From positions 1 to 46,280 of IMG/VR virus record IMGVR_UViG_3300044816_000012: 46,280 nt of DNA. One strand, given 5' to 3'. The first letter of the stretch is position 1. Each line of letters starts with the position of its first letter. The position numbers and the translations under genes were made by a program. Below the pieces are notes generated by a model. The model was not told where the DNA came from and did not search any database. It saw only the letters and a program-made list of their open reading frames with translations. This document shows, piece after piece, positions 6,229-45,746 of the stretch. Source of the DNA: a virus.

Positions 6229-6297
6229 TTATTTCTCCGATAATCCAAGGCAGATAGTGATGGTCAACCATGTGCAGATGAATGTGAATAGCATCAT
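6229..6297 (-). CDS. possible 22-aa hydrophobic micro-peptide
   Basis: Not in track. [22 protein letters not shown]; TAATG overlap upstream, and its stop lies 1 nt before the pentapeptide A start. Confidence 0.3.
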
Positions 6298-30122: not shown

Positions 30123-32263
30123 TGCCCGTCGTAACGATGCCGGATGGTGCGCAAGTAGAGATGCCGGATGTAATCGATCCGGCACTCGGCGCGCGGCTGC
30201 GTTCACTTCACGATACGACACCACACGAAGTTACCGAAGGCCCCCAAGGGTTCCTGAACGGCGTAGCGGAAATCGCCGGTAAAGGCATTGGCAATATCCC
30301 CGGCGCTGCGGCACACGGCGTAAAAGACCTTTACAGCCGCATAGCGCACGGTCAAGGTGCGGGACCCTCTGCGCCTACCTTCCCCTTAAGCCCAAATGCC
30401 AAGAGTGTGGGTCAGGGCATAGGCGATGCGCTAGGCGCTGCGTCCGCTCCTTACCAACTACCCAAAGCCGCAACGGAAGCTGTTGACCAATACGTAGCGC
30501 CAGTAGTTAGTGATGTAGGGGCCATAGCGCCAGTGGCGGGGGCCGTCGGTAATATGACCGGTGCATTTTCCGCCGCAGAAGCAGCGGCTAATGCGCCTGA
30601 TTGGGCTAGATATGGTTATCGTACTGAGGAAGCGCACCCCATAGCGGCAGGCGCAGCGGGCAGCACTGGCACACAAGCGCTTACACTCCAGCATCAAGGC
30701 ATAAGCAATACGCTAGCCGGTGCTGAAGCTGGCGTACCGCATGGCACGAAGTTAAGTTATGAGGCACTAGCTAAAGGACAGGAAGCGCCTAACGCTGTTT
30801 TCGGTCGTGTCGCTGCGGCGCTACCAGAATCGCCACTAAGCCCGGCGGCCCAATCGATGGTTAGCGCCGTAGGGGACATCGGAAACCGAATAACGAAAGG
30901 CACACCGAATGCGCGTGCAAATATCGGCTCCCTCAAAGAGGACTTCTTGGCCCCTGACACTAAGTTCTCCGGGAACCAGATCGTAAATGAAATGCGCGGC
31001 TTGCGGCAGGAAGGGTATGCCAATATAGGCTCTGAGGACGTTAGCAATCAGCAGCTAGGTAAGGCGCAGCTTGATATGTCCCGTGCTTTGGAACAGCACG
31101 TACGAGATACACTACCCACTACCGCTGACGTATCAATGGACCAACTTGCGGCTGCTCGTACCGCCTTGGCTAAGAATCATGCGGTACAGAGCGCGCTACA
31201 CGGTTCAAACGTAGATCCCGCAGCCCTTGCGCGGGTTCAGCGTGCGGACCCTGACTTGCTTACCGGCGGCCTCAAGACGGTAGCTGACTTCACTAATGAG
31301 CACCCGGCGATATCCAAGCTGGCTAATAGCATTGAGTCACCGCCGAGTTTCCAGAGGGACCTAGGTAAGGCCATAGGCGGAGAACACCAGGACATTACGG
31401 GTCGCTTGTTCCGTGCCACCGGCATAGGGGCGGGAGCCCGCCGCGTGCTTACAGGCAATCCGCAGAAGGCTTTGGAGGCTGCGCAACGCGCGCCAGTTAC
31501 CGGTCTTGGCGATGAGTTCGCGCCTATCGATCAGGGCGCACCGCAACCGCCGCCGGGGCTTACCGCAGGGCCGATGGGTGCACCGCCGCAGGCTCCCGCA
31601 GCCAATCCCGGCGATATCCCGCTGGCCGATTTGCTATCGCACGGTGTCGAACAGCCGCCCACTGCGGGACTGTCCTTGGGTCAAGCACCACAACCAACAG
31701 GCATTCCGTTTAGCCATAACGCTGAGCACATGGCAGGTGACCTATCACTAGCCGATGAGTCAACGCAAGCCAGTCCGTTCAAAGGGCAGCCCCTGAGTAT
31801 GAGCGACTTTGCGGGCGTCAAGAGTCAAGGCGTACCAGAAGGCATAATGCAGCGCGCACCGGGCCGCGCGCCGTCGCGACTTAGCGATACCATAGACTTT
31901 GAGCCGAACAGCCTGAAGTTGGAGCGGCCCGCTGGCAAGGCATTTGAGCCTATGCAACGCGACCTCCTACAGAACAACGCTTCCGGAGAATCGGCGGCTA
32001 GCCTTGAGGCACAAAACCGACCGAAGCTAAACTTGGTCCAGTTCAATGGCGATACTGAAAAGCCGATCCTTAAGGACGTTACCCAAGCGGACATTGAGCC
32101 GGACAAAGGCCATGTCATCATAGACCGGGATACCGGTAGGGTTGTCAAAAGTGGCAAGATGGCTCCTAACCTAGTTAAGGGCCTTCTAGCTCGTTGGAAG
32201 AACTTCCAAGCCGAACCGAAGGGCGGCCCTTCACTAGCCGACGAGTTCGCGCCCGGTGGTTAA
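30122..32263 (+). CDS. putative internal virion/ejection protein (713 aa)
   Basis: Largest ORF before the fibre genes; TAATG coupling. Confidence 0.6.
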   Translation: MPVVTMPDGAQVEMPDVIDPALGARLRSLHDTTPHEVTEGPQGFLNGVAEIAGKGIGNIPGAAAHGVKDLYSRIAHGQGAGPSAPTFPLSPNAKSVGQGIGDALGAASAPYQLPKAATEAVDQYVAPVVSDVGAIAPVAGAVGNMTGAFSAAEAAANAPDWARYGYRTEEAHPIAAGAAGSTGTQALTLQHQGISNTLAGAEAGVPHGTKLSYEALAKGQEAPNAVFGRVAAALPESPLSPAAQSMVSAVGDIGNRITKGTPNARANIGSLKEDFLAPDTKFSGNQIVNEMRGLRQEGYANIGSEDVSNQQLGKAQLDMSRALEQHVRDTLPTTADVSMDQLAAARTALAKNHAVQSALHGSNVDPAALARVQRADPDLLTGGLKTVADFTNEHPAISKLANSIESPPSFQRDLGKAIGGEHQDITGRLFRATGIGAGARRVLTGNPQKALEAAQRAPVTGLGDEFAPIDQGAPQPPPGLTAGPMGAPPQAPAANPGDIPLADLLSHGVEQPPTAGLSLGQAPQPTGIPFSHNAEHMAGDLSLADESTQASPFKGQPLSMSDFAGVKSQGVPEGIMQRAPGRAPSRLSDTIDFEPNSLKLERPAGKAFEPMQRDLLQNNASGESAASLEAQNRPKLNLVQFNGDTEKPILKDVTQADIEPDKGHVIIDRDTGRVVKSGKMAPNLVKGLLARWKNFQAEPKGGPSLADEFAPGG

Positions 32264-33596
32264 GAAAGTCCAGCTTCCGGTAATCGGCGGTGTCCGCAAG
32301 ACGATTACAATTCCGGACATAACTCCTGGTACGACTATTGCAGGCTTCGCCGCGCAGACGCTTACCATAGCGCAACTCCGCCAATTGCTGGGTGTCGTTA
32401 CTCCCCCTCTAGGCGGCGGAAACATCGGTGGTGGCGGTGGTACTGGTGCGGCTATTATCCTAGGGCCGGGGCTGTCAGGCGGCGGTCCCTTAGTTGGGAA
32501 CGTCCCTATAAACCTAACCGCACCAATACCGGTATTCATCTTTGACGATGGCGGCGGGGATGGTGACGGGGGCTCCGGCCCGCCCGGACAGCGGGGGGCG
32601 GACGGTGCAACGGGCAGCCAAGGGCCGGCAGGACCTGCCATCTACCTTTCGGCCAATGACGGTGAAGATGGCTTCATGGCCGTCCCTGGGAACCCCGGCG
32701 CTGCTGGTACAAATGGTGCAACCGGAGCGCCCGGTACGGCAGGACCAGCCATATACCTTACTGCTGAGCCCGGTGAGGACGGCTGGAATGCTATCCCTGG
32801 GAACCCCGGCGCTGCTGGTACAAATGGTGCAACCGGAGCGCAAGGTCCTGTAGGACCGGCGCTTATGTTTTTCGCCCAGGACGGAGAGGACGGCGCAGCA
32901 GGACCGCCGGGCGTTAGCGGAACTGGCGGCGGAGTTACAAGCCCGTTCAACGTTACTCCCGATACCCACTTAGCGCTACCGACTGGGGTAGGGCTTGGTC
33001 CTAACGATGAGTTTGAAACAGGTTCCTCTATAGACACCGCTGGCACTAGATATGCAGGGGCTACGCCGTGGACGGCATTTAACGCAGTGACCGGTACAAC
33101 TACCAATGTCGATTCAGGATCGTTAGTGCTCACCGCCGCTAACGTTACCTTGAGCAATAACGGGTACTCACAACCTATCGTCGGCGCCACCTGGGAATAC
33201 ACCTGCCGGCTTGCCATAACTATGCAAAGCGCCGCGGCTTACGGCATGCTGCTTGCAACGGCGGCAGGCGCTAGCGGGGCTATACTGCAAATTGTCGTAT
33301 ACTCCGGTACTACGGCATATGCCCAACGGTACAACAGTGCTACGTCTTTTAACAGCAATATGGCAAATACCGCCGTATCAGCACAGTTCAACTATTTGCG
33401 GGTAGGGTATGACGGAACTAACCTAAACCTTTATGTTAGCACTACCGGCGTAGGGTCAACATTTGTGCTGCTATATTCAGAAACACCTGCCGCTTTTTTG
33501 GGCAGCGTACCTACACTTGTGGCAGTTTCAGGAAACATAAACGGCGGCAACGCCGCATCTCAGGGCGTATTTGACTGGTTCAGGCGAACAGCTTAA
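32256..33596 (+). CDS. Collagen-like tail fibre protein (446 aa, GTG start)
   Basis: G-X-Y runs (GPPGQRGADGATGSQGPAGPA; GNPGAAGTNGATGAPGTAGPA twice), then a beta-rich C-terminal domain. Confidence 0.8.
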   Translation: MVKKVQLPVIGGVRKTITIPDITPGTTIAGFAAQTLTIAQLRQLLGVVTPPLGGGNIGGGGGTGAAIILGPGLSGGGPLVGNVPINLTAPIPVFIFDDGGGDGDGGSGPPGQRGADGATGSQGPAGPAIYLSANDGEDGFMAVPGNPGAAGTNGATGAPGTAGPAIYLTAEPGEDGWNAIPGNPGAAGTNGATGAQGPVGPALMFFAQDGEDGAAGPPGVSGTGGGVTSPFNVTPDTHLALPTGVGLGPNDEFETGSSIDTAGTRYAGATPWTAFNAVTGTTTNVDSGSLVLTAANVTLSNNGYSQPIVGATWEYTCRLAITMQSAAAYGMLLATAAGASGAILQIVVYSGTTAYAQRYNSATSFNSNMANTAVSAQFNYLRVGYDGTNLNLYVSTTGVGSTFVLLYSETPAAFLGSVPTLVAVSGNINGGNAASQGVFDWFRRTA

Positions 33597-33620
33597 ACTC
33601 ATGGCAATTGGAGGAATCTT

Positions 33621-33992
33621 ATGGCGCAGAACAAGAAACTGAATATCGCACCGATTGCCGTTACGGCATCCGTCACCAATTTGCTCAATTGCAATGTGAC
33701 GGCGGTCACAGGGCCGGTAGGGTTCACTATGACCCAGCCGTATCTGCTTATCAAGCATATTCGTGCAGTCAATACGACTGCCGGCGCTCTGACCCTTACG
33801 CTCTATAAAGGTGCAACCGGCGCTAGTGCGGCGGGCACCCAGTTCATGTTTGCCGGTACCTCGATTCCTGCCAATTCCTATGTGGACATGTATACGGAAG
33901 CACGCTTTGACGCGGTTGACTTCCTGACTGGTATCGGCAGCGCTACCGGCATCACGCTTGATATATCTGCTGAAATCGGAGTCTCAGGCTAA
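33621..33992 (+). CDS. hypothetical tail-module protein (123 aa)
   Basis: ORF with SD ggaggaatcttATG. Confidence 0.7.
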   Translation: MAQNKKLNIAPIAVTASVTNLLNCNVTAVTGPVGFTMTQPYLLIKHIRAVNTTAGALTLTLYKGATGASAAGTQFMFAGTSIPANSYVDMYTEARFDAVDFLTGIGSATGITLDISAEIGVSG

Positions 33993-34291
33993 TGGCTCTC
34001 ATGTACGTTACAGAATACGCGGGCTTAGGTACGGACCCAAACGGATCTACGCAGGCGGTAGCTACGCCTCCTCTTGTGGAGCAAACGCCCGTCGCTATTG
34101 GCGCTGCGGCGTCTTCCTTGCCGTTCGGGGTTAACACGACCATAGTCCGCATCCACGTCGATGCTATCGCTTCTGTCAACATAAACATTGGCGGAGCGGC
34201 TACGACTTCTAGCGGACGGATGGTTGCCGGGCAGACAGAGTACTTCCGCGTGGCTCCTGGGCAGCGGGCTAACGTGATAACTAACACATGA
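33992..34291 (+). CDS. hypothetical tail-module protein (99 aa)
   Basis: ORF with TAATG coupling. Confidence 0.65.
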   Translation: MALMYVTEYAGLGTDPNGSTQAVATPPLVEQTPVAIGAAASSLPFGVNTTIVRIHVDAIASVNINIGGAATTSSGRMVAGQTEYFRVAPGQRANVITNT

Positions 34292-34470
34292 CCGGCGATA
34301 TCGGAGCCATAGGGGCGATAGGCACCCTTGGCATAGAATCACCGATCATCGGTTTCACTTCTGGCGCTGGCGGCGGCTCAGGCCCCGGCACGACTGCTGC
34401 GTTGCAATACAACGTAGCGTCTAACTCCATGTACCGCATAAGCACAGGTTTAGGAATAGGGGTAGGATAA
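34288..34470 (+). CDS. small Gly-rich protein (60 aa)
   Basis: ORF with ATGA coupling. Confidence 0.5.
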   Translation: MTGDIGAIGAIGTLGIESPIIGFTSGAGGGSGPGTTAALQYNVASNSMYRISTGLGIGVG

Positions 34471-36267
34471 ATGGCTACGATTACGGTACTTGACTCTACT
34501 GGCGCAACGCAAACAGTTGCTAAGGTCGTAAATACCGGCACCGTAGCAGACGCTAACAGCCTTCCTGTTACCCAATCAACCGAAGACAAAGCAGTAGCTA
34601 CAGCATCAGGCGCATCCCTCGCATCGATTGACGCCAAGACCCCCGCGCTATCAGGAGGAACCGTTCCCGTAAGCGCTGCTGCGCTCCCCCTACCCGCAGG
34701 AGCGGCTACGGAAGCTACGCTTGCCGGGATAGGCAACCGCTTCTCTGCTAGCGTCCCTCTAGAAACTACGCAAGCACTACCGATTACCCAAACACCCCAA
34801 AAAACTTGGCGCGCTGGATTCGATGCGGCCGTAGCAGCGGGCCCCGACACGACGTACTTCACCGCCATAGCCAACGGATCGGGTATTGCGGTAGCGCAGT
34901 CTGGCGGATCGCTCGTTATTACTACGGGAGCCACCGCATATTCTGAAACTATTTTGAGGTCAGTCCCGTCGTGGATGGGCACCAATAAGAGTAGGTATAG
35001 CCTGACGCTATCCCAGCGCATCGTTAACTGTGAAGTGTACATCGAACTGGTGGACGTTATTGGTGATGGTCTAACTATCGTCCATACCAGTTCGACTACT
35101 GTCGTCGTAACAATACCGAGCAATCCGTTTACTGCTGCTAACGTTGGGCAAAGCGTCTACATCGGCGCTATCTCGGTAGCAGCGAGTTTGAACCAGCGGG
35201 CGGCTATTACGTCAATAAGCGGCAACGATGTGACCTTCACGGGCGCGGGCTTCGCAGCTACCGGCACCGGAACATGTTCGCTATTTGGATGGAACTACCA
35301 CCATGCGTATTACGACGGTACGGTAGCAACGTCGACGAAGTACGGCACTTGCCGCAATGGCTGGGCCTCGGCGGATGTCGCAGTCACCATAAACACAACC
35401 GCCACCGGGCATATCGGCGTAGTTACCGCAGAGGCGGGCAAGGGTGCTTACCTCGATCAACTATCAGCATCGTCTACGACGGTGGAGTTAGTGCAGCGTG
35501 GGTCTTCGGTTCGCAACGTTCCTGAAGATCAGACGGCGTTACGTTACCAGATCCGGGTGCGCAATCTCGCTACTGCACCGGCATCGACGACTACGGTAAC
35601 GGTCGGTTTTGTGGAGGCTGATCAGTTTGTTGCGCAGCAGATGTCCCTAATCGGCGTTGAAGCAATGTCCGCTAACCAGGCGTTGCCGGTACAGTTAGTA
35701 GGCACGACGGGCACCGTTGGCACTGTTACTACGGTTTCCACCGTCACTGCGGTAACCACATTGGCAAACGGCCAGACGGCGCATTCTGCCGCTTCGACAG
35801 GGTCCCCGGTTCGTGTCGGCGGGCGGGTTAATACTACCGTAGATACTACGCTGGTGGCCGGCGATGCGTCAGACCTATTTATTACGACTAGCGGTTCGGC
35901 GGTCGTTAAACAGTACGCTGCGCCAGAACTTGACTGGAGTTATGCGGCAGCTACGGGGGGTATTACTAATACGACTGCCGCCGTAACTGTCAAAGCAGCA
36001 GGCGCAGCGGGTGTGCGAAACTACATCACTGGCGTACAGCTTTCCACTGATACGTTAGGCGCAGCGACCGAGTTTGCTATACGGGATGGCGCAGCGGGCA
36101 CGGTAATCTGGCGCTGCAAACTTAACACTACCGCTCTTCCGCTGCTTACCATAGACTTCCCGACACCGCTACGGGGGACCGCCGCGACGCTGGTAGAGAT
36201 AGTTACGCTTACCGCGTCCGTTACTGGCGGTGTCTTCGCTAATCTACAGGGCTACCAGGCCCCTTAA
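34471..36267 (+). CDS. Tail fibre/spike-like protein (598 aa, T/A/V/G-rich)
   Basis: Size, beta-type composition, and position at the distal end of the structural arm. Confidence 0.7.
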   Translation: MATITVLDSTGATQTVAKVVNTGTVADANSLPVTQSTEDKAVATASGASLASIDAKTPALSGGTVPVSAAALPLPAGAATEATLAGIGNRFSASVPLETTQALPITQTPQKTWRAGFDAAVAAGPDTTYFTAIANGSGIAVAQSGGSLVITTGATAYSETILRSVPSWMGTNKSRYSLTLSQRIVNCEVYIELVDVIGDGLTIVHTSSTTVVVTIPSNPFTAANVGQSVYIGAISVAASLNQRAAITSISGNDVTFTGAGFAATGTGTCSLFGWNYHHAYYDGTVATSTKYGTCRNGWASADVAVTINTTATGHIGVVTAEAGKGAYLDQLSASSTTVELVQRGSSVRNVPEDQTALRYQIRVRNLATAPASTTTVTVGFVEADQFVAQQMSLIGVEAMSANQALPVQLVGTTGTVGTVTTVSTVTAVTTLANGQTAHSAASTGSPVRVGGRVNTTVDTTLVAGDASDLFITTSGSAVVKQYAAPELDWSYAAATGGITNTTAAVTVKAAGAAGVRNYITGVQLSTDTLGAATEFAIRDGAAGTVIWRCKLNTTALPLLTIDFPTPLRGTAATLVEIVTLTASVTGGVFANLQGYQAP

Positions 36268-36277
36268 GGATGTTTTT

Positions 36278-36556
36278 ATGAACTACCAGATCAGAACAGT
36301 ACTCAACGTACCCGGTTTTCCAAGTGCTGGTGCGTGGGGCATACCGCGTGCGAGTGATATATACGGGGTTCCCTCTACAGGGATACAGGTATACGCGGGA
36401 GATGTTATTGTAGCTTGCCAGAACTTAACAAATCCCGCTGATTACTCTGTGGTGTTCCACAGAAACATAGTTCAAGACCAGCAAATAACGCAGGTAAATA
36501 CGAACGATTTTTCAGCTAATATGTATCTGCTTGTTATCGGTACGCCGGTATTGTGA
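36278..36556 (+). CDS. hypothetical protein (92 aa)
   Basis: Track ORF trimmed to ATG 36278 (aagga SD). Confidence 0.6.
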   Translation: MNYQIRTVLNVPGFPSAGAWGIPRASDIYGVPSTGIQVYAGDVIVACQNLTNPADYSVVFHRNIVQDQQITQVNTNDFSANMYLLVIGTPVL

Positions 36557-36586
36557 TGGGTGTTAAATTAGCGGTGGCACCGTAAT

Positions 36587-36961
36587 ATGGACATCACTGG
36601 CGCAGGCGAGATTGCGACGGCGGCCAAAGGCATCCTTGGCATGTTCTTTCCGGATAAAACCGAGGAAGAAAAGTCCAAGATTGCTGCAACGCTGGCCATG
36701 CTCACCGCGCAGACCGACATCAACAAGGCCGAGGCCCAATCCACCGATCCACTTCAACATTGGCGCGGCGGCATGGGCTGGGTCTGCGTCTTGGGTTACT
36801 TCCATAACTTCATCTTCCAACCACTATTTACCGATGTCGTAGCATTCATGGGGAAGAATGTAGTTCTACACCCGCTTGATATCGGCCCCTTGGCGACACT
36901 CACCCTCGGTATGCTGGGACTCGGCGGCTTACATGTCGCTCAACAGGTAGGCAAGAAATGA
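36587..36961 (+). CDS. Holin, 3-TM GTA-holin-like family (124 aa)
   Basis: N-terminal FFPDKTEEEK, then QTDINKAEAQSTDPLQHWRGGMGWVCVLGYF and two further hydrophobic segments; lies upstream of the endolysin. Confidence 0.7.
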   Translation: MDITGAGEIATAAKGILGMFFPDKTEEEKSKIAATLAMLTAQTDINKAEAQSTDPLQHWRGGMGWVCVLGYFHNFIFQPLFTDVVAFMGKNVVLHPLDIGPLATLTLGMLGLGGLHVAQQVGKK

Positions 36962-37113
36962 ACCATAAAGTAAACTTTTGGGCGTGTACCAGCGCTAGTA
37001 CCTGCATAACCGGGTTCGTAATATGGTCCCTCCCCTATCTCCAATTCATTGCCGTAGTCATCTCGATAGCCGCAGGCATTCGGGCCTACCTGGTTAGCCG
37101 TAAGCAGAAATGA
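36958..37113 (+). CDS. small two-TM lysis-cassette protein (51 aa), holin/antiholin partner candidate
   Basis: Not in track. MNHKVNFWACTSASTCITGFVIWSLPYLQFIAVVISIAAGIRAYLVSRKQK; ATGA overlaps with both the holin and the endolysin. Confidence 0.6.
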   Translation: MNHKVNFWACTSASTCITGFVIWSLPYLQFIAVVISIAAGIRAYLVSRKQK

Positions 37114-37538
37114 TGCAGTTAGGCACTAAAGGCAAAGCGCTAATCCAGGGGTTTGAGAAACTAGCGCTAACGGCGTACCAAGATCAGGGCGGCATCTGGA
37201 CTATCGGCTGGGGGCACGTTAACTCCGGCATACGTGCCGGTGACAAGTGCTCCCCGGAGCAGGCGGATGCGTGGTTTGAGCAGGACGTGCAGCGCGCGGT
37301 GCTGGCGGTATCTGATACTATCAACGTGCCCCTAACGCAGAATCAATTCGACGCGCTTGTGGCCTTTACGTACAACGTAGGCGCTACCGCGATGGCGCAT
37401 TCTACCCTTATCAAGCTACTGAATCAGGGCCGCCCTGCCGCAGGCGAATTTGCCAAATGGAATAAGGTAAATGGTCAACCGTCTGCCGGTCTTACCCGCC
37501 GTCGAGACGCCGAATGTAAACTGTTCCTCGCCCCTTGA
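37110..37538 (+). CDS. Endolysin, GH24 (T4-type) lysozyme (142 aa)
   Basis: GFEKLALTAYQDQGGIWTIGWGH shows the E-x8-D-x5-T catalytic triad spacing; also YNVGA and GLTRRR. Confidence 0.9.
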   Translation: MMQLGTKGKALIQGFEKLALTAYQDQGGIWTIGWGHVNSGIRAGDKCSPEQADAWFEQDVQRAVLAVSDTINVPLTQNQFDALVAFTYNVGATAMAHSTLIKLLNQGRPAAGEFAKWNKVNGQPSAGLTRRRDAECKLFLAP

Positions 37539-37638
37539 TACCCTAGGGGTATAATGGCGGCATGCACCGACCACACCCTCTACCGACTTGCGCGCCCGAC
37601 GCAGACCATCACGAATACGACGTATGGGGTAAAGGGGA

Positions 37639-37660
37639 TGAGCCCTCCCTTGAGGGCTCA
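37639..37660. terminator. Hairpin at the convergence point of the two arms (9-bp stem, 4-nt loop)
   Basis: tgagccctc cctt gagggctca. On the minus strand it lies 18 nt after stop 37678 and is followed by tcccctttacc; there is no T-run on the plus side. Confidence 0.5.
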
Positions 37661-37677
37661 GAAGACGGAGACGATTA

Positions 37678-39141
37678 CTAGAGACGGTGCTTGCCGTTAA
37701 CGATGGTTATTAGCTGACTCTTGCCGCCTTTGTAGATGAGCAAGTCCGTATGCATCCAACTTGACGGGCTACCCAGGGCATAAGGCTGGCTGGCCTTCGC
37801 ATTGTGCCCCACCTGCCGAGCACCGCCGCTAGCACCTGGCCCGTGACCGTGTGCTATCGCTACCTTGTCGCCCAATCGGCTCATATTCTTGAGGGAACCC
37901 CGTGAACCATTTGGGCCTTTATGCCCGTGGTAGCCGCACTGGGTTTTCTCGATAACGAGCGATTCTCCGAGCGATAGACAGTGGATGTTATCCAATCCGC
38001 GCTGCTTTATGCAGTAGGGGAAGGGGCTGGGATAGCTAGCCATGCCGTCGTTTAGCGTAGCGCCTGCATCCATTGCCGCAGCCATCTGCAAATAGAACTG
38101 GCGGTTCTTGGCAGCCAACAGTTTCCAGTCGCTTTTGACTACCCAACGGCGTAGGAAGTCGTCATGGTTGCTAGCTACGACGTACGACTGCGCGCCCTTC
38201 GGAGTGCGGGATTCCACCCAGTCTATAGCCTGGTTAACCTCGCCCGCGACGTAATCCTTATTGCCCGTCGCTAGTGCCTTTTGGATAAAAGGGTCTTCCG
38301 CTTCGTGGGGATTGACACTCTGGCCGTCGAATAGATCGTGCCAAACTATGCGCTTCGGCTTGTACCGCGTGACAATGCCGTCCTTGCCGAAGGTAGCCTT
38401 ATCGACTCGCAAGTCGGTAGTAGCCACGTGGGTATCACCCAGAATGATAGCCTCGGGCGGCGGTGCTGCTTGCACTCCCGAAGGGGTGAATAGCGTATCC
38501 AGGTCAGTGCATTCGCCAGCTTCATTGAAGTTTAGATGCCGCAGATAGAAAATGCCGTCCTTATCCAATTCTACAAGAACCGCGCCGTAGCAATGGTGGA
38601 ACTCGCCGCCGGCACCGGACCGTGAGTTGCTATAGTTTGGCTCAGTGCATGCGCCGGTAGTGGTCATGATCTTAGCCATTTTACCGCTGGTCACAGGAAC
38701 AGTCGTAAACTGATAGCGGGTATGGCCCAGGATAAGCGATTCTCCGCCCGTTAGCCCTTCGAACCCTGAGAGCGGCGTAACTGCCGTAGGTACGACCTTA
38801 ATGTCGCCTGCGCACGTCAGATTGCGGTTAACGATCATCCGCTGGTTAAGCCAGTACGGTTTCGTTGCAGGGTCCCAGTTCTCTGCGTTCTCTTGCGATT
38901 GGGAGAATTGCGATGTGGGGTTTTTATACCGCAGTTGGATAACGGAGAGATGCGCTTTGTAGTGCTCCCGGATGACTTGCAGCGTCTTCCACGTAGGAGC
39001 ATGCACTGGCGTAGCATTCTGGGCTGCGGTGAACAGGTAGCGGACCGTACCCTTGGGCGCTGGATTGGTATGTACCTCCCACACCTTGGACGCTTGCGCC
39101 AAAGGGTGATGGGCCGTTACGAAGTCGTCAAATGTTTTCAT
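37678..39141 (-). CDS. Calcineurin-like metallophosphoesterase with ~230-aa N-terminal domain of unknown function (487 aa)
   Basis: Ordered motifs ILGDTHV, WHDLFDG, VVASNHDDF, GYHGHKG and IAHGHGPG match the metallophosphatase signature GDxH / GDxxD / GNHD / H / GHxH, with substitutions. Confidence 0.75.
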   Translation of the reverse strand: MKTFDDFVTAHHPLAQASKVWEVHTNPAPKGTVRYLFTAAQNATPVHAPTWKTLQVIREHYKAHLSVIQLRYKNPTSQFSQSQENAENWDPATKPYWLNQRMIVNRNLTCAGDIKVVPTAVTPLSGFEGLTGGESLILGHTRYQFTTVPVTSGKMAKIMTTTGACTEPNYSNSRSGAGGEFHHCYGAVLVELDKDGIFYLRHLNFNEAGECTDLDTLFTPSGVQAAPPPEAIILGDTHVATTDLRVDKATFGKDGIVTRYKPKRIVWHDLFDGQSVNPHEAEDPFIQKALATGNKDYVAGEVNQAIDWVESRTPKGAQSYVVASNHDDFLRRWVVKSDWKLLAAKNRQFYLQMAAAMDAGATLNDGMASYPSPFPYCIKQRGLDNIHCLSLGESLVIEKTQCGYHGHKGPNGSRGSLKNMSRLGDKVAIAHGHGPGASGGARQVGHNAKASQPYALGSPSSWMHTDLLIYKGGKSQLITIVNGKHRL

Positions 39142-39413
39142 CAGATTGCCGCTCGCATTTTGGCCGCTAGTGCTTTAGATCCGCAGTAGATCCGCTTCTT
39201 ACCAGAGTTAACAGTAATTATGAAGTCCTCAAAGCCGCCTCGGTAGACCGCACCGTCCATATTGCCTATAGCGTTAGCCTTGTAGAACTCGGCTTCATAC
39301 TCCCAGCCAGCAGGGGTAAGCGCCTCGATACCCGCTTTAATCTTCGCAGGGATGATATGGGATTTAACGTGAACCGGCTTGAAATCGTCGAATGTCTTGA
39401 CTTTCTTGCTCAT
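39141..39413 (-). CDS. hypothetical protein (90 aa)
   Basis: SD aggagccaccaacATG; its N-terminal KTFDDF motif is shared with the downstream phosphoesterase; TGATG coupling. Confidence 0.65.
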   Translation of the reverse strand: MSKKVKTFDDFKPVHVKSHIIPAKIKAGIEALTPAGWEYEAEFYKANAIGNMDGAVYRGGFEDFIITVNSGKKRIYCGSKALAAKMRAAI

Positions 39414-39435
39414 GTTGGTGGCTCCTATCGTGGTT

Positions 39436-39615
39436 TTAGAACTGATCGCCTAGCGGTACGTCCGCCTTCTTTTTGTGGTGTTTACGTGCTGGCAGCGGCC
39501 CGGCAGGCGTTGCTGCTACGAAGTCTGCTCCTACGCTCTTAGGGATACCCAAGGTGCTCTTACCTTCCTTAGCGGCATACATCGCTCGGCGCTGGGCTTC
39601 ACTCACCGCCGGCAT
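39436..39615 (-). CDS. DUF3008-like small protein (59 aa)
   Basis: Not in track. [32 protein letters not shown]... matches the [19 protein letters not shown] signature I know from a widespread small phage/bacterial family; TAATG coupling. Confidence 0.65.
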
Positions 39616-39821
39616 TATGGGAAACTCTCGCCTAGGGGCTTATCGCCGTTGGCTTCCGCCTCCTGGCTATCAAGCTTGGCTTTGCGCTGGGTTATGGCCT
39701 TCGGGCCGAATGCCTTAGCAGCAGCGCCGATAGCGTCGCTGATAGCCCCGCCGATACCGGGCGAAGCAGCTTTCGGCTGGCCGTTAGCATCTACCCATTT
39801 TCCATTAGCGTCATACGGCAT
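39615..39821 (-). CDS. hypothetical protein (68 aa from ATG 39821)
   Basis: Track ORF 39615..39857 (TTG start) trimmed to MPYDANGKW..., which has an aaggg SD. Confidence 0.5.
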
Positions 39822-39972
39822 CTGATTGACCCTTAGCCCAGGCGGGCCATTTAGCAAACATGGTTTCTAACTGTTTCCGCAGGTCTAGGCGTATCGTCGC
39901 TTGCGGTCGGAGTATGCCTAGATCTAGCTTCTGTTCGCCCGGCGCTGGCTCGAATATGTTATCTTGGCTCAT
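39811..39972 (-). CDS. hypothetical protein (53 aa)
   Basis: Not in track. [53 protein letters not shown]; ATGA overlap with the upstream stop. Confidence 0.45.
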   Translation of the reverse strand: MSQDNIFEPAPGEQKLDLGILRPQATIRLDLRKQLETMFAKWPAWAKGQSDAV

Positions 39973-40316
39973 AAGTCAAGTTCCGACCGTGGCGGTAAGT
40001 CCTGATTATATTCAACCTGCGCCTCAATTGCTAGCTGCAAAGCCGCCAGCGCTCTCCAAGCGGCTTTGGCTAGGTGCATAGTGCCATCCGTGTCAAACGC
40101 CTTGCCGGCGTGATGGTCCAGCATATGCCGTAGGATCTTGTTCTCATGGTCAGTGGATATACCGCGCTCCCAGCGCAGCTTGCCGCCAAAACCATACTGT
40201 TTATTGCCCGCAACTGAGACTTTGGCTATCTCAGCCCAGCAGTCAGGGAAGTAGGCTAGGCAGCCATCCCAGATAGGGAGGGCGTTACGTGCATCGCGAT
40301 TAGTCGGAAGCGCCAT
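39969..40316 (-). CDS. DUF5664-like protein, possible dATP/dGTP diphosphohydrolase-type domain (115 aa)
   Basis: ALPIWDGCLAYFPDCWAEIAKVSVAGNKQYG..LRWERG...ILRHMLDH fits my recollection of the dGTP_diPhyd_N/DUF5664 pattern (P..fp.al..va.v...G..KY..W..G......RH); start trimmed to ATG 40316. Confidence 0.45.
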   Translation of the reverse strand: MALPTNRDARNALPIWDGCLAYFPDCWAEIAKVSVAGNKQYGFGGKLRWERGISTDHENKILRHMLDHHAGKAFDTDGTMHLAKAAWRALAALQLAIEAQVEYNQDLPPRSELDL

Positions 40317-40317
40317 G

Positions 40318-40542
40318 TTATTTGTTCCCGAATTTAAGGCCATTAAACCAGCGTCGTAGCACGTAGCTGCGGGCTAGGGATATCAGCGTATATAGCAGCC
40401 CTAGCTCAAAGTTGGACTTTAGCGTCAGCGACGAAAAGCCGAACAAGGGAAGTAGTATCCAGTTTGCCGCAAAGTTAATCGAGAAGCCTACGGCGATGTT
40501 CGCCAGAGATTCTGCTATAGATCCTACCTGGGTTTGGGCCAT
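40318..40542 (-). CDS. two-TM membrane protein (74 aa)
   Basis: ORF with hydrophobic segments; TAATG coupling to the SNF2 gene. Confidence 0.6.
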   Translation of the reverse strand: MAQTQVGSIAESLANIAVGFSINFAANWILLPLFGFSSLTLKSNFELGLLYTLISLARSYVLRRWFNGLKFGNK

Positions 40543-41915
40543 TACATTCTCCGTTTCATTGCTTCAAGTAAAAGGTCTTGCACGCTGCGCTTGCTGCTGT
40601 GCGCCTGTATCACCGTCTCATCGACAGTTTCAAGTGCAATTATGTCGTACACAAATACAGGGCGGTCTAGTCCGGCTTGCATCTGTCTTACAGGGCCGAT
40701 CCGTTCAAGCATCTGCATCCGCTCTCCTAAGTTCCAATCGTGCCCGTACCGTACTAGGATGTTAGTCACGCTCTGAAGCCCGTCGATCCCGTGGCCCATA
40801 GACTTAGCGTGTGCGAGGCCAATACCTGCGTTGCCGGATCGGAAAGCTGCCATTCCCGCGCTCGTTGATAGCTCGACAGCGCGCGGGAAAGCCGCCTTAA
40901 TTCTAGCCAAGTCGGATTTAAACGAATAAGCGACAAGCAACGGAGTACCACCGCTTTCCGCTTCAATGGATCGCAACGCCTCGATTTTCTCGTCATGTAC
41001 CGGTATCCATTTGGGGTAGTCAATGTATACAGCACCGTTAGCTAATTGCAAGCACTTATTTGTAAGAGCCGCAGCGTTGAACACTTCGATATTACCTAGC
41101 GCCCCCATTTCGGCGAATAGCTCTTTCTCCAAGGTCTTGTACAACGCCCTCGCCTTCGGCGGCAGTATCACGTTGATAGTCCTGACGATAGGGTCTTTAA
41201 GGTCGAAGTAGTCCTTCGGATCAATCGTAAGGCACACGTCCTTTAGCGCCGCATGGATTTCCTTACCGGCATGGGGCATCGGCTCTACGCCGTGACCGCT
41301 CCATTTGGGCCTAAACCAACGGTTCATAAAGGCGCTGTACGTGCGCCCTAAGCGTTCGCCTTTATCTATGTACCACGTCTGACCCCACAAGTCCTTAAGT
41401 CCGTTAGGTGCTGGCGTACCTGTAAGGTTGATCCAACGGTCCGTTAGGTTGTGGGCTATGCGCCCTAACTGGTGAGCGCGCATGCCCCCCTGGTTCATGC
41501 GGAAGCCTTTAAGTCTGTCACTCTCATCTGCTACCACTTGGCGAAAGGGCCATTTAGCCTGGTACTGGGTAACAAGCCAGGGAGCAAGCTCATAGCTTAT
41601 GGTGTATATATCAGCTTTACGTTTCAAAGCGTCAATGCGCTGCTTAGGGCTGCCGCTGAGCGCTACGATACGCAAATCCTTGAACTGGTCCCACTTGGCT
41701 ACTTCTTCGGGCCACGTATCTCTAGCTACTCGCACAGGGCCTATGACTAACGTTGGTGAGGTTCCGATATCACCCAGGAGTTTGAGAAGGTCTAGGGTGT
41801 AGAGCGTTGCCGATGTCTTGCCAGTACCCATACCTGCATACAACGAGCAGCGTTTAGTGTGCCGGATGAAATCCACCATTGGTTGCTGTATCGGCCTTAA
41901 GACTAGTCCGTTCAA
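40542..41915 (-). CDS. SNF2-family helicase (457 aa, TTG start)
   Basis: LRPIQ, AGMGTGKT, VADESDRLKG, LTGTPAPNGLKDLW, and C-terminal SMGHGIDGLQ. Confidence 0.88.
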   Translation of the reverse strand: MNGLVLRPIQQPMVDFIRHTKRCSLYAGMGTGKTSATLYTLDLLKLLGDIGTSPTLVIGPVRVARDTWPEEVAKWDQFKDLRIVALSGSPKQRIDALKRKADIYTISYELAPWLVTQYQAKWPFRQVVADESDRLKGFRMNQGGMRAHQLGRIAHNLTDRWINLTGTPAPNGLKDLWGQTWYIDKGERLGRTYSAFMNRWFRPKWSGHGVEPMPHAGKEIHAALKDVCLTIDPKDYFDLKDPIVRTINVILPPKARALYKTLEKELFAEMGALGNIEVFNAAALTNKCLQLANGAVYIDYPKWIPVHDEKIEALRSIEAESGGTPLLVAYSFKSDLARIKAAFPRAVELSTSAGMAAFRSGNAGIGLAHAKSMGHGIDGLQSVTNILVRYGHDWNLGERMQMLERIGPVRQMQAGLDRPVFVYDIIALETVDETVIQAHSSKRSVQDLLLEAMKRRM

Positions 41916-42235
41916 AACGGCACGCAGTATTCGCTGACGTAGCTATCTACCTGCTTCATCGTCCAGAGCACAAATACGGCGCAGCCAAGCTTGCGCCGTC
42001 GGGCATGGTCTCGCTCTTGTCCTGATTCGCACTTGCCACCTAGCGTCTTAAGCTCCACGAAGTGGATACGGGCGAAGCCATAGGCGGGCCACGTTACCAG
42101 CCTATCTGGCACGAATTTTTTACCGGGCGACGTGAATTTTTCTGTCATGCCGCCAGCCTTCTCAACTTGCTCCACGAAGTACCGCTCTACGGTGACTTCC
42201 TTAACGGAACAACGCTTGACTTTTGATGCGCTCAT
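41912..42235 (-). CDS. VRR-NUC domain nuclease (107 aa)
   Basis: FVPDRLVTW...IHFVELKTLGGKCESGQE shows the PD...E.K core; ATGA coupling to the polymerase. Confidence 0.8.
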   Translation of the reverse strand: MSASKVKRCSVKEVTVERYFVEQVEKAGGMTEKFTSPGKKFVPDRLVTWPAYGFARIHFVELKTLGGKCESGQERDHARRRKLGCAVFVLWTMKQVDSYVSEYCVPF

Positions 42236-44277
42236 TTCTGAAACCTATATCCTGTTCGGCCTTTAGCCGCTAGCGGCAAGCCGTCAGCCCATAGACTAGA
42301 CGTTACCAACAAGCGACTAAGGTCTTTGTCATTGTACCGGTCTTCGTCTGGCGGTTCGGTGATGGCTTGGTCATGGACGCTAAGCACGGGGCTATACCCG
42401 GCTTCCTCAGCGGCTATCAATCCATCCATCATGATGTCCGCAGCGCCGGCCTGTACGATGTTCTCCGCGCGCTTGCCGCTGTAGGTGCTAAGCCGCTTCC
42501 ATTGTTTGGTGTAAGGATCGATCCCTAAGAACGAACTGCTGTAATCGTCGCACTGCGCTGCGGGGTAGTTGAGGTACCGCCCGCTGGGCAGCTTGATACG
42601 CAGCCAATTAGCTTTGCGGTCAACCGATATGTGCGCTCCGACCTTAAACGTCTTGTTGGGTACGCGCGTCGCCATCTTCGTTGCTTGATCTAGCTCCGCC
42701 CAGAAGTTGACTATCGCGGGATGAGCAGCCCGCCAGAGGAGTACCAGAGAGTGGCAGACAACCCATACTCTTTCAGTAAGTCCATAGGTTCGGTTTCGCT
42801 TGATGGCTTTATGCCAAGCGGTATTTGCTTCTCGCTTGGTATCGGTAGGAATGACTGGCCATGCTGACTTAGCCAGGTCTTCAAGGCGCAGGCCGTATAC
42901 TTCTGCCATTGAACAAAAGGCACCAACCCCGCCGTAGTACTGAAGGGCCAATTCCATGACCTTTCCGATTTGCCGGCGGTCGTCTCCCTCATCAGCGATA
43001 TCATTAGGATTAATGTTGAAAGCACGCGCATATGCCACCTTGTATAGATCAGGACCTTCCTTCCTATCGAACGCGGCGAAGGCGTCTAGCTTCCACTGTT
43101 CGCCGGCAACCCAGGCCATGAACCGACCTTCGATATTTGCAAGGTCAGAATCGACAAGGCGCTTGCCTGGTGCTGCGATAATGAGGCCGCGCAGGCAACT
43201 AGACGCCAAGCCAAGCACAGCATCGGGATCGTATAAATCAATCTCACCCAGTTGGAACATCCGTATCGCAAAGTCTATCTCCGACTGTTTGTGTTTTGGC
43301 CTTGGGAGATTCTGCGGCTGTAGTGTGCGCCCAGCCCATCGGCCAGTGCGAGCAGCACCACAAAAGACAAGAAGGTTACAAAGGCGACCGTTGACGTGCT
43401 GATTAAGCACACGCCGGTACTTAGCAGTGCTCGCCTTACTAGCTTGCTGACGGACACGGAGTAACTCCTTAATATGTTCGGGTAGGGACTCATCTTCTAG
43501 CCGTCGTTCTACGGTATCTGCCGTCAGGTCTGGCAGGTCTACGCCGTACGCCGACATGTAGGCCAGCAACCGGTTGCGCTGGGTAGTTGACTCAACTTCA
43601 TTGTTGGTAAGTTCCGCTGTGCGAGCGGCCATCTGGCGCTTGGCTTTAGTCGTAGCCGCTACTGCGCCGGCAGCTAGCTTCAGATCCATAGCTACGCCAC
43701 GTTCGTTCATCTTCTGATCAAGGTGCCAAACCGCCCACATGCGCGGCGTTGCATTCCACTTTGGAAGCGCTTTGTGTATCGCGCGCATGGCGATGACATC
43801 TTGCTCCCCATACGACAGAAATTCAGCCCATTCCTTAGGGTGCGACTTACTGTCGCTGTACCCGTATTTATGCGGGATGCAGAATAGCTGGATAAGCGCC
43901 ATTCCGCGTTTATCCTTAGCCTCCTCACTGGTCAACTTGAATATCTCACTTAGCGGTCCCAGCCCACCCGGCAATCCGTGCATCCGCGCAAGCGCCGCAG
44001 TGCAACGCCATTTCTCTAAGGGTATGAGTGGCCACCAACTAGTGGTTTCGAGCACCGTTCGGTCAAATTCGGCGTTATGCGCCCAAATTTCATCCGCGTT
44101 GGTGGCTGCGTCTATCAGTGCAGGGGATGGCGGTCCCGCTGTTAGGTCCTCTACGGTAATAGGGCCATCGTCTACCGCCCATTGCGCCATGATGACTTCA
44201 ACGCCAGTAGCGTACTTGACGGTGCCATGCCTGATGGGCACGGCGCTACGGGTTTCACAGTCTATCCAGAAGCGCAT
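42232..44277 (-). CDS. polA: Family A DNA polymerase with 3'-5' exonuclease domain (681 aa from the preferred start)
   Basis: Exo I FWIDCETRS, Exo II HNAEFD, Exo III YGEQDV. Pol motif A DSDLANIEGR, motif B RRQIGKVMELALQYYGG, motif C SVHDQ. ATG 44277 follows aaaggatttgag; the track start 44319 would overlap the upstream gene by 41 nt. Confidence 0.92.
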   Translation of the reverse strand: MRFWIDCETRSAVPIRHGTVKYATGVEVIMAQWAVDDGPITVEDLTAGPPSPALIDAATNADEIWAHNAEFDRTVLETTSWWPLIPLEKWRCTAALARMHGLPGGLGPLSEIFKLTSEEAKDKRGMALIQLFCIPHKYGYSDSKSHPKEWAEFLSYGEQDVIAMRAIHKALPKWNATPRMWAVWHLDQKMNERGVAMDLKLAAGAVAATTKAKRQMAARTAELTNNEVESTTQRNRLLAYMSAYGVDLPDLTADTVERRLEDESLPEHIKELLRVRQQASKASTAKYRRVLNQHVNGRLCNLLVFCGAARTGRWAGRTLQPQNLPRPKHKQSEIDFAIRMFQLGEIDLYDPDAVLGLASSCLRGLIIAAPGKRLVDSDLANIEGRFMAWVAGEQWKLDAFAAFDRKEGPDLYKVAYARAFNINPNDIADEGDDRRQIGKVMELALQYYGGVGAFCSMAEVYGLRLEDLAKSAWPVIPTDTKREANTAWHKAIKRNRTYGLTERVWVVCHSLVLLWRAAHPAIVNFWAELDQATKMATRVPNKTFKVGAHISVDRKANWLRIKLPSGRYLNYPAAQCDDYSSSFLGIDPYTKQWKRLSTYSGKRAENIVQAGAADIMMDGLIAAEEAGYSPVLSVHDQAITEPPDEDRYNDKDLSRLLVTSSLWADGLPLAAKGRTGYRFQK

Positions 44278-44278
44278 C

Positions 44279-44626
44279 TCAAATCCTTTTGACAGTTGTG
44301 GCCCGGTCGATGCGTTCAATTTCCGCCACGATCAAAGCGGCGGCGCGCACCAGATCACGCCTAGCATCCTTTGGCTTCCACCATCCCCCATTGAAAGGCC
44401 ATAACGCCGTGAGGATTTTGTCCTTATCCAACTTCGGCGCGGGCTTTTCGTTGTTCCGCCGTCTGAGCAAATACTGCGCTTGATAGGCATAGCAGGCAGC
44501 AGCGGCGGCCAATGTCCCGCCCTCATGTCCATCATCGTGTGCAAGGTCCCAGCCTTCTGCGTCCTGCTGGCGATGCCGCTCGGTCGTTACGTCGATGATC
44601 GCTTGACTGTCAAGGTAGGTTTTCAT
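44279..44626 (-). CDS. conserved-looking hypothetical protein (115 aa)
   Basis: ORF. ERHRQQDAEGWDLAHDDGHEGGTLAAAAACYA and WPFNGGWWKPKDARRDLVRAAALIVAEIERI resemble a recurrent phage family whose name and function I cannot assign. Confidence 0.7.
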   Translation of the reverse strand: MKTYLDSQAIIDVTTERHRQQDAEGWDLAHDDGHEGGTLAAAAACYAYQAQYLLRRRNNEKPAPKLDKDKILTALWPFNGGWWKPKDARRDLVRAAALIVAEIERIDRATTVKRI

Positions 44627-44712
44627 GGTTTGACGCCTTCTGGGTCGACGCCGCAGTGCGGGCAGACGCGCTCAAGGATCTCTCCGTCAGTCACGACGAT
44701 GCGCCGCTTCAT
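44623..44712 (-). CDS. 29-aa peptide with CPHC motif
   Basis: Not in track. MKRRIVVTDGEILERVCPHCGVDPEGVKP; ATGA overlaps at both ends. Confidence 0.4.
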   Translation of the reverse strand: MKRRIVVTDGEILERVCPHCGVDPEGVKP

Positions 44713-44966
44713 GACAGCAACTCAATCATGCCTTTGTCTTTGTCCCCGTTCTTCGGCGCATTAACAATGCGCTGGGATAGGAGGAACAGCGCATACGCAG
44801 TGCCCAAGGCTACCGCCGCGCTTTTCGGGTTATCCTTCTGCAAGGCTACAACCGTCTTCTCTACCAGAAGCGCAGCCCACTTACACCGCTGCTGTTCGCT
44901 AGGGGGAATGCCCGCCAGCAATTCGCGGATAGTCTCAAGGTTGCCGTCAATACTGTCGGTAAACAT
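44709..44966 (-). CDS. hypothetical protein (85 aa)
   Basis: ORF in the operon chain. Confidence 0.6.
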   Translation of the reverse strand: MFTDSIDGNLETIRELLAGIPPSEQQRCKWAALLVEKTVVALQKDNPKSAAVALGTAYALFLLSQRIVNAPKNGDKDKGMIELLS

Positions 44967-44968
44967 GT

Positions 44969-45073
44969 TTAGATTCCGTCTATTAGAGTGACAAGTCCAA
45001 AGATGGCAAGTGCAGCTATCATTATGCCGCCAATTACCGCCAGTGCTATTATCGCAGGGCTTACTAGAACCAT
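44969..45073 (-). CDS. single-pass membrane peptide (34 aa)
   Basis: Not in track. MVLVSPAIIALAVIGGIMIAALAIFGLVTLIDGI; SD ttaggagcaccacaATG. Confidence 0.55.
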   Translation of the reverse strand: MVLVSPAIIALAVIGGIMIAALAIFGLVTLIDGI

Positions 45074-45156
45074 TGTGGTGCTCCTAAAATTGGCTGGGAG
45101 GGCGCGGGCCGGGAGTTAACCCGTTTACCGTTATCGCCTCCCCCAGCCCGCGAACA

Positions 45157-45720: not shown

Positions 45721-45746
45721 TGTGGTCTCCAGTTAGTAGATCGGTT

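Follow-up and report, generated by a model that had tools for sequence, protein, structure and literature searches.

Why should two adjacent phage genes overlap by a single base and encode proteins, one resembling a nuclease and the other small and basic, that open with the same short motif? This question is raised by the IMG/VR virus record IMGVR_UViG_3300044816_000012, of which the whole stretch of 46,280 nucleotides was analysed (hereafter the window). At the end of its leftward arm, on the minus strand, the gene of a 90-amino-acid (aa) protein, here called the partner, is followed directly by that of a 487-aa metallophosphoesterase similar to the A1 protein of phage T5. The reading that we favour, with a probability of roughly 0.55, is that the pair is a two-subunit phage nuclease, in which an A1-like catalytic subunit is joined by a detachable DNA-binding subunit through an N-terminal helix that both proteins share. 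An earlier first-pass annotation of the window, made by a model from the sequence alone, had pointed to the two open reading frames (ORFs), to their TGATG overlap and to the translational coupling of the pair. All of this is present in the sequence, where the junction GCAATCTGATGAAAACA (also written CTGATGAAA) has one base common to the TGA of the partner gene and the ATG of the nuclease gene. The observation made there is thus confirmed; the interpretation attached to it is partly supported.

The larger protein was identified by only one of the domain libraries searched, PHROGs, in which the family phrog_1745 (“DNA transfer protein”) matches residues 24–484 with an E value of 1.2e-133 (profile positions 78–538 of 542); searches of Pfam, NCBIfam and PDB sequences gave no match. 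In a direct BLASTP comparison with T5 A1, residues 21–484 align with T5 residues 90–553 at 30% identity (E 1e-52), and a tblastn search matched 1131 phage records, 1117 of which cover at least 80% of the query, annotated as A1, A1-like or DNA transfer protein. Identity to any homolog from a cultured phage stays below 40%, and metagenomic relatives reach 45–84%. Judged from these alignments, the 487-aa protein is a full-length homolog of T5 A1 that adds a rather distant new member to a known family. Taken alone, the enzyme is therefore not novel, being one more A1 homolog outside the T5-like phages.

The five ordered metallophosphoesterase motifs reported in the first-pass annotation are all found in the catalytic domain, and no loss-of-function residue occurs in the metal site: the ligand positions D236, H238, D269, N325, H326, H405, H431 and H433 are invariant in a 70-sequence alignment of the family and line up with the GDIH, HDVHD, SNHD, HGH and GHTH motifs of T5 A1. 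Motifs II and III, which had seemed non-canonical, are no peculiarity of this protein, as HD...D and SNHD are family traits common to T5 A1 (VHDVHD, ESNHD). Neither is the N-terminal part a large unknown add-on, as had been thought, since residues 21–228 constitute the conserved core of the A1 family and align with T5 A1 residues 90–300. This core has no Pfam match; its invariant residues in the same alignment include T38, A40, T44, P45, N74, S77, W89, T119, P123 and H140. The AlphaFold2 (AF2) model of the enzyme has a predicted local distance difference test score (pLDDT) of 91 and a predicted template modelling score of 0.90. When this model was compared with the PDB by Foldseek there was no strong match, and the best ones were phosphoesterase folds: Vps29 (E 7e-3), the PolD DP1 proofreading exonuclease (E ~0.05), SapH, purple acid phosphatases and the B subunit of Pol delta. 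The weak alignments to the whole of PolD DP1 span 374–402 columns at a template modelling (TM) score of about 0.28.

T5 A1 and A2 have been known genetically for some sixty years. A1, a predicted metallophosphatase, is both necessary and sufficient in vivo for degradation of the host chromosome, and A2 is a DNA-binding protein needed together with it (bioRxiv 10.64898/2026.04.02.716235). The latter is a dimer found in association with A1, and second-step transfer depends on it (bioRxiv 10.1101/866236). Residues 1–60 of T5 A1 have been modelled as a GcrA-like DNA-binding domain by Stokar-Avihail et al., and four of the five A1 missense mutations in retron-Ec67 escape mutants fall in this segment (bioRxiv 10.1101/2022.08.27.505566). 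Homologs outside T5-like phages have been noted since 2012, when one was recognised in phiCbK near its DNA polymerase (PMC3556154), and are also present in the ~46-kb podophages Palo and Paso (PMC7844081, PMC7862964). Among the three roles proposed earlier for the window protein, namely degradation of host DNA, dephosphorylation of host proteins and destruction of nucleotide second messengers, the first is the one with homology support, which comes from full-length similarity to T5 A1. The enzyme is thus a candidate DNase that would act on host DNA.

The new part of this locus is the partner, a member of a hitherto undescribed family with about 400 cluster representatives and a basic, winged-helix-like character. 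A word-seeded homolog search recovered 9 relatives only, giving a misleading picture of a tiny family; an exhaustive profile search returned 399 cluster representatives at E ≤1e-3, 271 of them at E ≤1e-10. One high-scoring sequence, P0150, is a 3046-aa cadherin-repeat protein that reaches E 1e-25 against the partner profile via 14 weak repeated matches and is a false positive. The 90-aa domain corresponds to no family in Pfam, NCBIfam or PHROGs, and no match was obtained in PDB sequences, in a GTDB scan with a narrow partner alignment, or by tblastn with the window partner and the consensus-like member P0157 in 50,697 GenBank phage records. Many members of the family are 130–160 aa long and consist of an N-terminal helix-turn-helix (HTH; Pfam HTH_8, HTH_50, HTH_23 and others) followed by the ~90-aa domain; the window partner is a short form that lacks this extension. 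The 90-aa domain itself has no Pfam HTH match. Its AF2 model (pLDDT 88) has the topology H8-32, E, H, H, H, E, E, H, that is, a long helix α1, three short helices, a β-hairpin and a C-terminal helix, and in Foldseek its PDB matches, though weak (E 0.05–0.35), are almost all ArsR/SmtB or MarR winged-helix repressors; of the top 50 (E 0.075–0.35, TM 0.3–0.5) most are of this kind. The isoelectric point is 9.55, and the family median 9.35. Fold, charge, the HTH on the long forms and the replacement of fused DNA-binding modules described below together suggest that the partner binds DNA.

The motif that links the two proteins, KTFDDF, occurs in the six-frame translation of the window only at their N-termini, MKTFDDFVTAHHP and MSKKVKTFDDFKPVHVK. 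It had been picked up by the first-pass annotation, and it proves both real and meaningful, because it is conserved across dozens of loci and is hence not due to chance. In the enzymes it reads K-[ST]-[LF]-x-[DE]-F-x3-H-x-[PG], and in the partner family the consensus at the start of the 90-aa domain is K-[ST]-L-x-[DE]-F-R-x-x-[HY]-D-K. The enzyme motif ends in Pro or Gly, whereas in the partners the helix carries on; in the long partner forms the motif is internal, after the ~50-aa HTH. At all 19 of 19 partner-anchored loci the directly downstream gene encodes a phosphoesterase that opens with the motif. These enzymes are of three classes: A1-like proteins of 485–515 aa (phrog_1745), proteins of ~345 aa that match phrog_284 “exonuclease” (E 1e-31 to 1e-44), and proteins of ~281 aa that match phrog_7339 “DNA repair exonuclease” and, weakly, Pfam Metallophos. 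In hhalign the last two classes prove related (probability 96%). That they might be truncated A1 proteins was considered and rejected, as in hhalign comparisons their likeness to the A1-like family is confined to the catalytic-motif level. Where the start is unambiguous, partner and enzyme genes of homologous loci lie between an overlap of 4 nt and a gap of 13 nt (-4 to +13).

The association also holds when the enzyme is taken as the starting point. Among non-redundant IMG/VR loci with upstream DNA present, a partner gene lies directly upstream of 29 of the 29 A1-like genes that carry the motif (25 positive for its regular expression and 4 degenerate) and of none of the 41 that do not (35 with a four-cysteine, or Cys4, N-terminus of the type CPxCG... 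and 6 others). On GTDB contigs the corresponding counts are 4/4 for genes with the motif and 0 of about 25 for genes without it, which are Cys4-fused, HTH-fused or bare. Pooled, 33 of 33 motif-bearing A1-like genes have an upstream partner, as against 0 of ~65 with a Cys4 or HTH fusion or no extension. Moreover, the motifs of cognate proteins are more alike than those of proteins from different loci: across 28 distinct pairs they agree at 5.5 of 12 positions, compared with 4.50 ± 0.21 after shuffling, and none of 10,000 shuffles reaches the observed value. Examples are RPPEDF in both proteins of locus L025 and KSL[A/D]DFRKAHD in both proteins of L103. Recent gene conversion between direct repeats is not supported as the source of this likeness, given a codon identity at identical residues of 52.6% for cognate pairs as against 48.4% for non-cognate ones, where sharing one genome slightly raises the cognate value. 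Since the two figures are nearly equal, the likeness of the motifs is kept by selection at the protein level. The two motifs evolve in concert, and motif and partner are strictly coupled.

A second line of evidence is provided by relatives in which the partner is missing. The IMG/VR contig L031 is syntenic with the window (SNF2 helicase 74% identical, a 74-aa membrane protein 70%, dGTP_diPhyd_N protein 75%, orf59 71% and the A1-like protein 60%), and there the position of the pair is taken by an A1-like protein with a Cys4 extension, the partner being absent. The same exchange is seen in the 345-aa class, in which the enzymes of L141 (GenBank MW202713) and L020 are 65% identical; the former has an HTH-fused N-terminus, the latter a short partner and the motif. 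The L141 gene (MW202713.1, 2282–3520) encodes a 412-aa HTH-fused phosphoesterase annotated as “archeal DNA polymerase II”, which is probably a mis-annotation arising from the similarity of the phosphoesterase domain to the small subunit of PolD. When 97 sequences of the HTH extension of long partners were combined in a profile, this matched N-terminal extensions fused to the A1-like cores of L116 (two copies, E 4e-18), L097 (E 1e-4) and L137 (E 2e-4). In L116, a contig from a Burkholderiales metagenome-assembled genome (MAG), the two partner-type HTH copies are in tandem at the N-terminus of the A1-like protein (2024–3886). HTH-like N-terminal extensions are present in T5 A1 and in A1 of Xoo-sp13 as well. 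The N-terminal feature of the A1 family thus varies between HTH, Cys4, motif or none, and the same enzyme slot is filled by a fused HTH, a fused Cys4 or a 20-residue motif plus a separate partner, which makes the separate partner interchangeable with modules fused in cis. For the Cys4 N-termini there are sub-threshold Pfam hints only (Zn_ribbon_InsA, E 0.03), so that their assignment as zinc ribbons is based on the cysteine pattern. As far as sequence comparison can tell, A1-type cores are almost always accompanied by some DNA-binding-type module. Cys4 A1-like genes also occur on very large contigs of 134–285 kb (L120–L134) from MAGs classified in GTDB as candidate phyla radiation (CPR)/Patescibacteria, e.g., Lloydbacteria, Parcubacteria, Saccharibacteria and others, and one A1-like gene is found on L138, from a bin labelled “uncultured archaeon”. 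These CPR and archaeal-bin genes may belong to prophages, to phage contigs binned wrongly or to chromosomes.

In the model that we propose for the pair, the 487-aa subunit would be a binuclear metallophosphoesterase that degrades host DNA, shuts the host down and feeds the nucleotide-processing enzymes encoded nearby. The 90-aa partner would be a basic, winged-helix-like and probably dimeric DNA-binding module, made just ahead of the nuclease from the same mRNA by virtue of the TGATG coupling. The N-terminal helix of the nuclease would then mimic helix α1 of the partner and dock into the helix-helix interface of the latter. Docking would tether the nuclease to DNA. Other A1 proteins may achieve the same in cis with their fused HTH or Cys4, and T5 perhaps in trans with A2. 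A docking peptide fits the enzyme, because its N-terminal helices (residues 4–11 and 13–19) are unpacked from the body of the AF2 model, at a low pLDDT of 54–71, and because its motif ends in Pro or Gly. In ArsR/SmtB-type dimers helix α1 is part of the dimer interface, although the assignment of the partner to this fold is weak here. From these features we infer docking by α1 mimicry. A more general version of the idea, which we put forward tentatively and consider rather doubtful, is that the shared helix is an interface-mimicry plug, so that the winged-helix family may capture, by its own α1 surface, any phosphoesterase nuclease that bears a copy of it.

Several points weigh against this model. 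Even T5 A1 has yet to display nuclease activity in vitro, and it might instead activate a host nuclease (bioRxiv 10.64898/2026.04.02.716235). The A1-like gene of the window lies at the distal end of a leftward arm of ~17 kb, within the replication module, and is not pre-early; an immediate, T5-style shut-off of the host need not follow, and the gene may serve phage DNA metabolism. Since every structural match to the partner is weak, we can only infer that the 90-aa domain itself binds DNA. Moreover, homology of the partner to T5 A2 is rejected, as no similarity is detectable: when a 101-sequence partner profile was compared with T5 A2 and with a 20-sequence A2 profile, the hhalign probability did not exceed 0.2%, with a single sequence or with profiles. 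The local copy of Pfam misses T5 A2 itself and is uninformative in this respect. Finally, the loci compared are related to one another, and independent evolutionary events are fewer than the locus counts, including the 28 cognate pairs, would suggest.

Other explanations of the pair have to be weighed against the two-subunit nuclease. The partner might instead restrain the enzyme, as an antitoxin- or immunity-like inhibitor or an autoregulator, or might shield phage DNA, and the shared motif would be its grip on the nuclease. This we consider unlikely, although the arrangement is that of type II toxin-antitoxin (TA) and nuclease-immunity pairs, in which a small DNA-binding-like protein is likewise encoded upstream of the toxic enzyme, with a 1–4-nt overlap of the genes. 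The T5 homolog of the downstream enzyme is highly toxic, and how T5 DNA escapes A1 is an acknowledged open question (bioRxiv 10.64898/2026.04.02.716235). However, neither window protein falls in a known TA family, and close relatives swap the partner together with the motif for a cis-fused Cys4 or HTH, which better fits a module that the enzyme needs; the A1 proteins of T5 and Xoo-sp13 also bear fused DNA-binding-type N-termini. That the partner can be swapped for DNA-binding modules fused in cis speaks for a protein that activates or targets the enzyme and against one that neutralises it.

A second alternative concerns the substrate. The enzyme may act on phage DNA, as an exonuclease of the Mre11/SbcD or PolD DP1 kind that serves replication, recombination or the processing of ends; the partner would bring it to replication intermediates. 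The position of the cassette is consistent with this: in the window it is part of the replication arm, after DNA polymerase A, VRR-NUC and SNF2, at locus L004 it follows a DNA polymerase, and the phiCbK homolog is near a DNA polymerase too (PMC3556154). In addition, the two other effector classes match PHROGs families named for exonucleases, one of them for DNA repair, and the PolD DP1 proofreading exonuclease is among the best fold matches of the enzyme. Nevertheless, the only genetics available for the family, those of T5, point to degradation of host DNA and host shut-off, and no SbcC/Rad50-like ATPase lies nearby. No SMC-like ATPase is encoded next to the window pair either, the neighbours being the SNF2 helicase, the dGTP_diPhyd_N protein and small ORFs; the combination of SbcD homology and an SbcC partner, raised in the first-pass annotation, is absent on both counts. 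What recurs next to A1-like genes are enzymes of the nucleotide pool. A dGTP_diPhyd_N gene is present near them in the window, in L004, in L007 and in 14 of 80 IMG/VR A1-like loci, and other such neighbours are a YfbR-like 5'-nucleotidase (L004), DUF4406 (L007), a MazG-like gene (Flavobacterium elemoviruses) and an N-deoxyribosyltransferase (Nostoc phage NMeng1). The recurrence of these enzymes in unrelated phages parallels the location of dmp by T5 A1 and fits a role in DNA breakdown. A function on phage DNA is on balance improbable.

The shared motif could also be an address tag for a third party, e.g., host RNA polymerase, the membrane or a virion component for co-injection, without any mutual contact of the two proteins through it. 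T5 A1 does associate with membranes and RNA polymerase (bioRxiv 10.1101/866236; bioRxiv 10.64898/2026.04.02.716235), the two motifs evolve in concert, and the cassette of L007–L009 lies between genes for a portal and a Mu-F-like head protein. However, in long partners the motif is internal and can be no N-terminal signal there, only two proteins of the genome bear it, and it is absent from relatives with a fused module and so tied to the partner; we regard such a tag as very improbable. For the same two reasons, its internal position in long partners and its restriction to two proteins, an N-terminal sorting or cleavage signal is unlikely as well. The motif resembles the capsid-targeting sequence of T4, MKTYQEFIAE, which is a lead only. 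Hardly credible, finally, is a Ser/Thr phosphatase like lambda PP or a phosphodiesterase directed against the cyclic-nucleotide signals of defence systems, roles suggested earlier that are backed by none of our searches, since apart from the generic metallophosphoesterase fold there is no similarity to such families in Pfam, NCBIfam or PDB sequences, the homology to T5 A1 covers the whole length, and the PPP signature GDxHG/GDxVDRG/GNHE is replaced by GDTHV/HDLFDG/SNHD.

The coordinates of the pair, its parts and adjacent features in the window are given in Table 1.

Table 1. Features of the partner/A1-like gene pair and its surroundings in the 46,280-nt window
Feature	Position	Strand	Basis or remark
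487-aa T5 A1-like metallophosphoesterase gene (putative catalytic subunit)	37678..39141	-	ORF
90-aa basic winged-helix-like partner gene (proposed detachable DNA-binding/targeting subunit)	39141..39413	-	ORF
TGATG stop/start overlap (translational coupling)	39139..39143	-	Junction sequence
AGGAG ribosome-binding site of partner gene	39422..39426	-	8 nt before partner ATG, read from sequence
N-terminal motif of A1-like protein, KTFDDFVTAHHP	39103..39138	-	Residues 2–13; proposed docking helix
N-terminal motif of partner, KTFDDFKPVHVK	39363..39398	-	Residues 6–17, at start of helix α1
A1-family N-terminal core domain	38458..39081	-	Residues 21–228; β-strand-rich, invariant TAAQNATP and RYKNPTS motifs
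Metallophosphoesterase catalytic domain	37681..38457	-	Residues 229–487; motifs I–V
Motif I, ILGDTHV	38425..38445		Residues 233–239
Motif II, HDLFDG	38323..38340		Residues 268–273
Motif III, SNHDDF	38155..38172		Residues 324–329
Motif IV, GYHGHKG	37915..37935		Residues 403–409
Motif V, HGHGPG	37834..37851		Residues 431–436
GC-rich hairpin between convergent arms, without U-tract	37639..37660	.	Folding analysis
124-aa dGTP_diPhyd_N protein (nucleotide-pool enzyme)	39969..40343	-	PF18909, E 4.9e-13

An exact direct repeat of 127 bp is present at both ends of the contig (1–127 and 46154–46280). Hence the window represents one complete phage genome, circular or permuted, with a length of 46,153 bp, and the leftward arm consequently runs from 8691 through 1/46153 to 37678. 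It encodes an anti-restriction protein, a primase, a Gp2.5-like single-stranded DNA-binding protein, DNA polymerase A, VRR-NUC, an SNF2 helicase and the dGTP_diPhyd_N protein, and ends with the partner and the A1-like protein; with the arm so defined, the earlier description of the pair as its last genes is correct. A view of the pair as accessory, moron-like cargo does not stand, as the gene has the same position in the syntenic L031, lies in replication and nucleotide-metabolism arms in other phages, and is essential in T5. The convergent terminator placed next to the pair is confirmed in part: a hairpin does exist between the convergent arms (9 bp, ΔG -17.2 kcal/mol, z -2.4 for the minus-strand RNA), but it lacks a U-tract, and a consensus scan called no canonical intrinsic terminator at this site. 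The rightward arm has structural and lysis genes. Seven of its large ORFs in the structural part, all on the plus strand and encoding 334–729 aa (13088–15277, 15307–16434, 19618–20622, 22186–23688, 28887–30122, 30122–32263 and 34471–36267), have no PHROG match at E ≤1e-5, and because of this the virion module is judged very divergent from those of described phages. A megablast search of positions 30000–46280 against GenBank phages gave no match; the MAG bins of the nearest relatives suggest Pseudomonadota. Next to the anti-restriction-like gene that opens the leftward arm (phrog_2059, 8077–8691) are two genes (5556–6248 and 6739–7662, both on the minus strand) for early-arm proteins with 4–5 internal repeats each, which match phrog_7713, of unknown function, and several other PHROGs of unknown function.

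Outside the window, the nucleotide-pool neighbours of A1-like genes were located at 7614–8667 in L004 and at 5662–6620 in L007, and also in L002 and L003. In L007–L009, which are Logan contigs, partner and A1-like genes (~3827–5631) precede those of DUF4406 and dGTP_diPhyd_N, and all of them lie between the genes of the portal and a Mu-F-like head protein, so that this cassette is inside the head-morphogenesis module and not in a replication arm.

How does the locus compare with known systems? The window enzyme and T5 A1 (phrog_1745, with homologs in Demerecviridae, phiCbK, Xoo-sp13, Palo/Paso and elemoviruses) have the same five motifs, including HD/SNHD, and the same N-terminal core, and in both a nucleotide-pool enzyme is encoded nearby. 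However, the window protein lacks the first ~89 residues of T5 A1, including the predicted DNA-binding domain (1–60), in place of which it has a motif helix of ~20 residues. Its gene occupies the distal end of the replication arm, in a genome of 46 kb, and not a terminal repeat or a region of first-step transfer; the window contains neither a first-step-transfer region nor a long terminal repeat, its 127-bp end repeat reflecting circular or permuted assembly. T5 A2 is a 135-aa DNA-binding dimer, encoded by a small gene shortly upstream of A1 on the same strand, much as the window partner is a predicted DNA-binding protein genetically tied to an A1-type enzyme. In T5 the gene of a 65-aa membrane protein separates A2 from A1, whereas the window genes overlap, and T5 A1 and A2 have no clear common N-terminal motif, unlike the window pair. 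The fused Cys4/HTH A1-like proteins (L031, L116, L097 and Xoo-sp13) share the catalytic core at 45–60% identity and, in L031, the genomic position. The HTH is of the type found on long partners, with the module in cis and with neither the N-terminal motif nor a partner gene. Mre11-Rad50/SbcCD and PolD DP1 likewise combine a catalytic subunit of the binuclear metallophosphoesterase nuclease fold with a separate DNA-engaging subunit; nevertheless, the window enzyme has no detected ABC-ATPase partner, Mre11 capping domain or Pfam Metallophos match, and its Foldseek matches have E ≥0.007 and TM <0.3. On these grounds the locus may be regarded as a variant of the A1/A2-type two-component phage nuclease, of which the nuclease activity and the docking are predicted features.

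In all, the meaning of this locus lies in the long-standing puzzle of T5, which concerns the means by which A1 breaks down host DNA, the need for a DNA-binding partner and the sparing of phage DNA. The pattern described here gives a testable model, that of a catalytic core with an exchangeable targeting module, in a small and tractable system of a 53-kDa enzyme, a 10-kDa partner and a 12-residue motif. If the plug-like function of the shared helix were true, phages would possess a plug-and-play two-component nuclease system, with three enzyme classes and one adaptor family, interchangeable with versions that have an HTH or a zinc ribbon fused in cis. The adaptor could then direct nucleases of the A1 type to the DNA of the host and keep them off that of the phage, the very question posed by A1 and A2 of T5.

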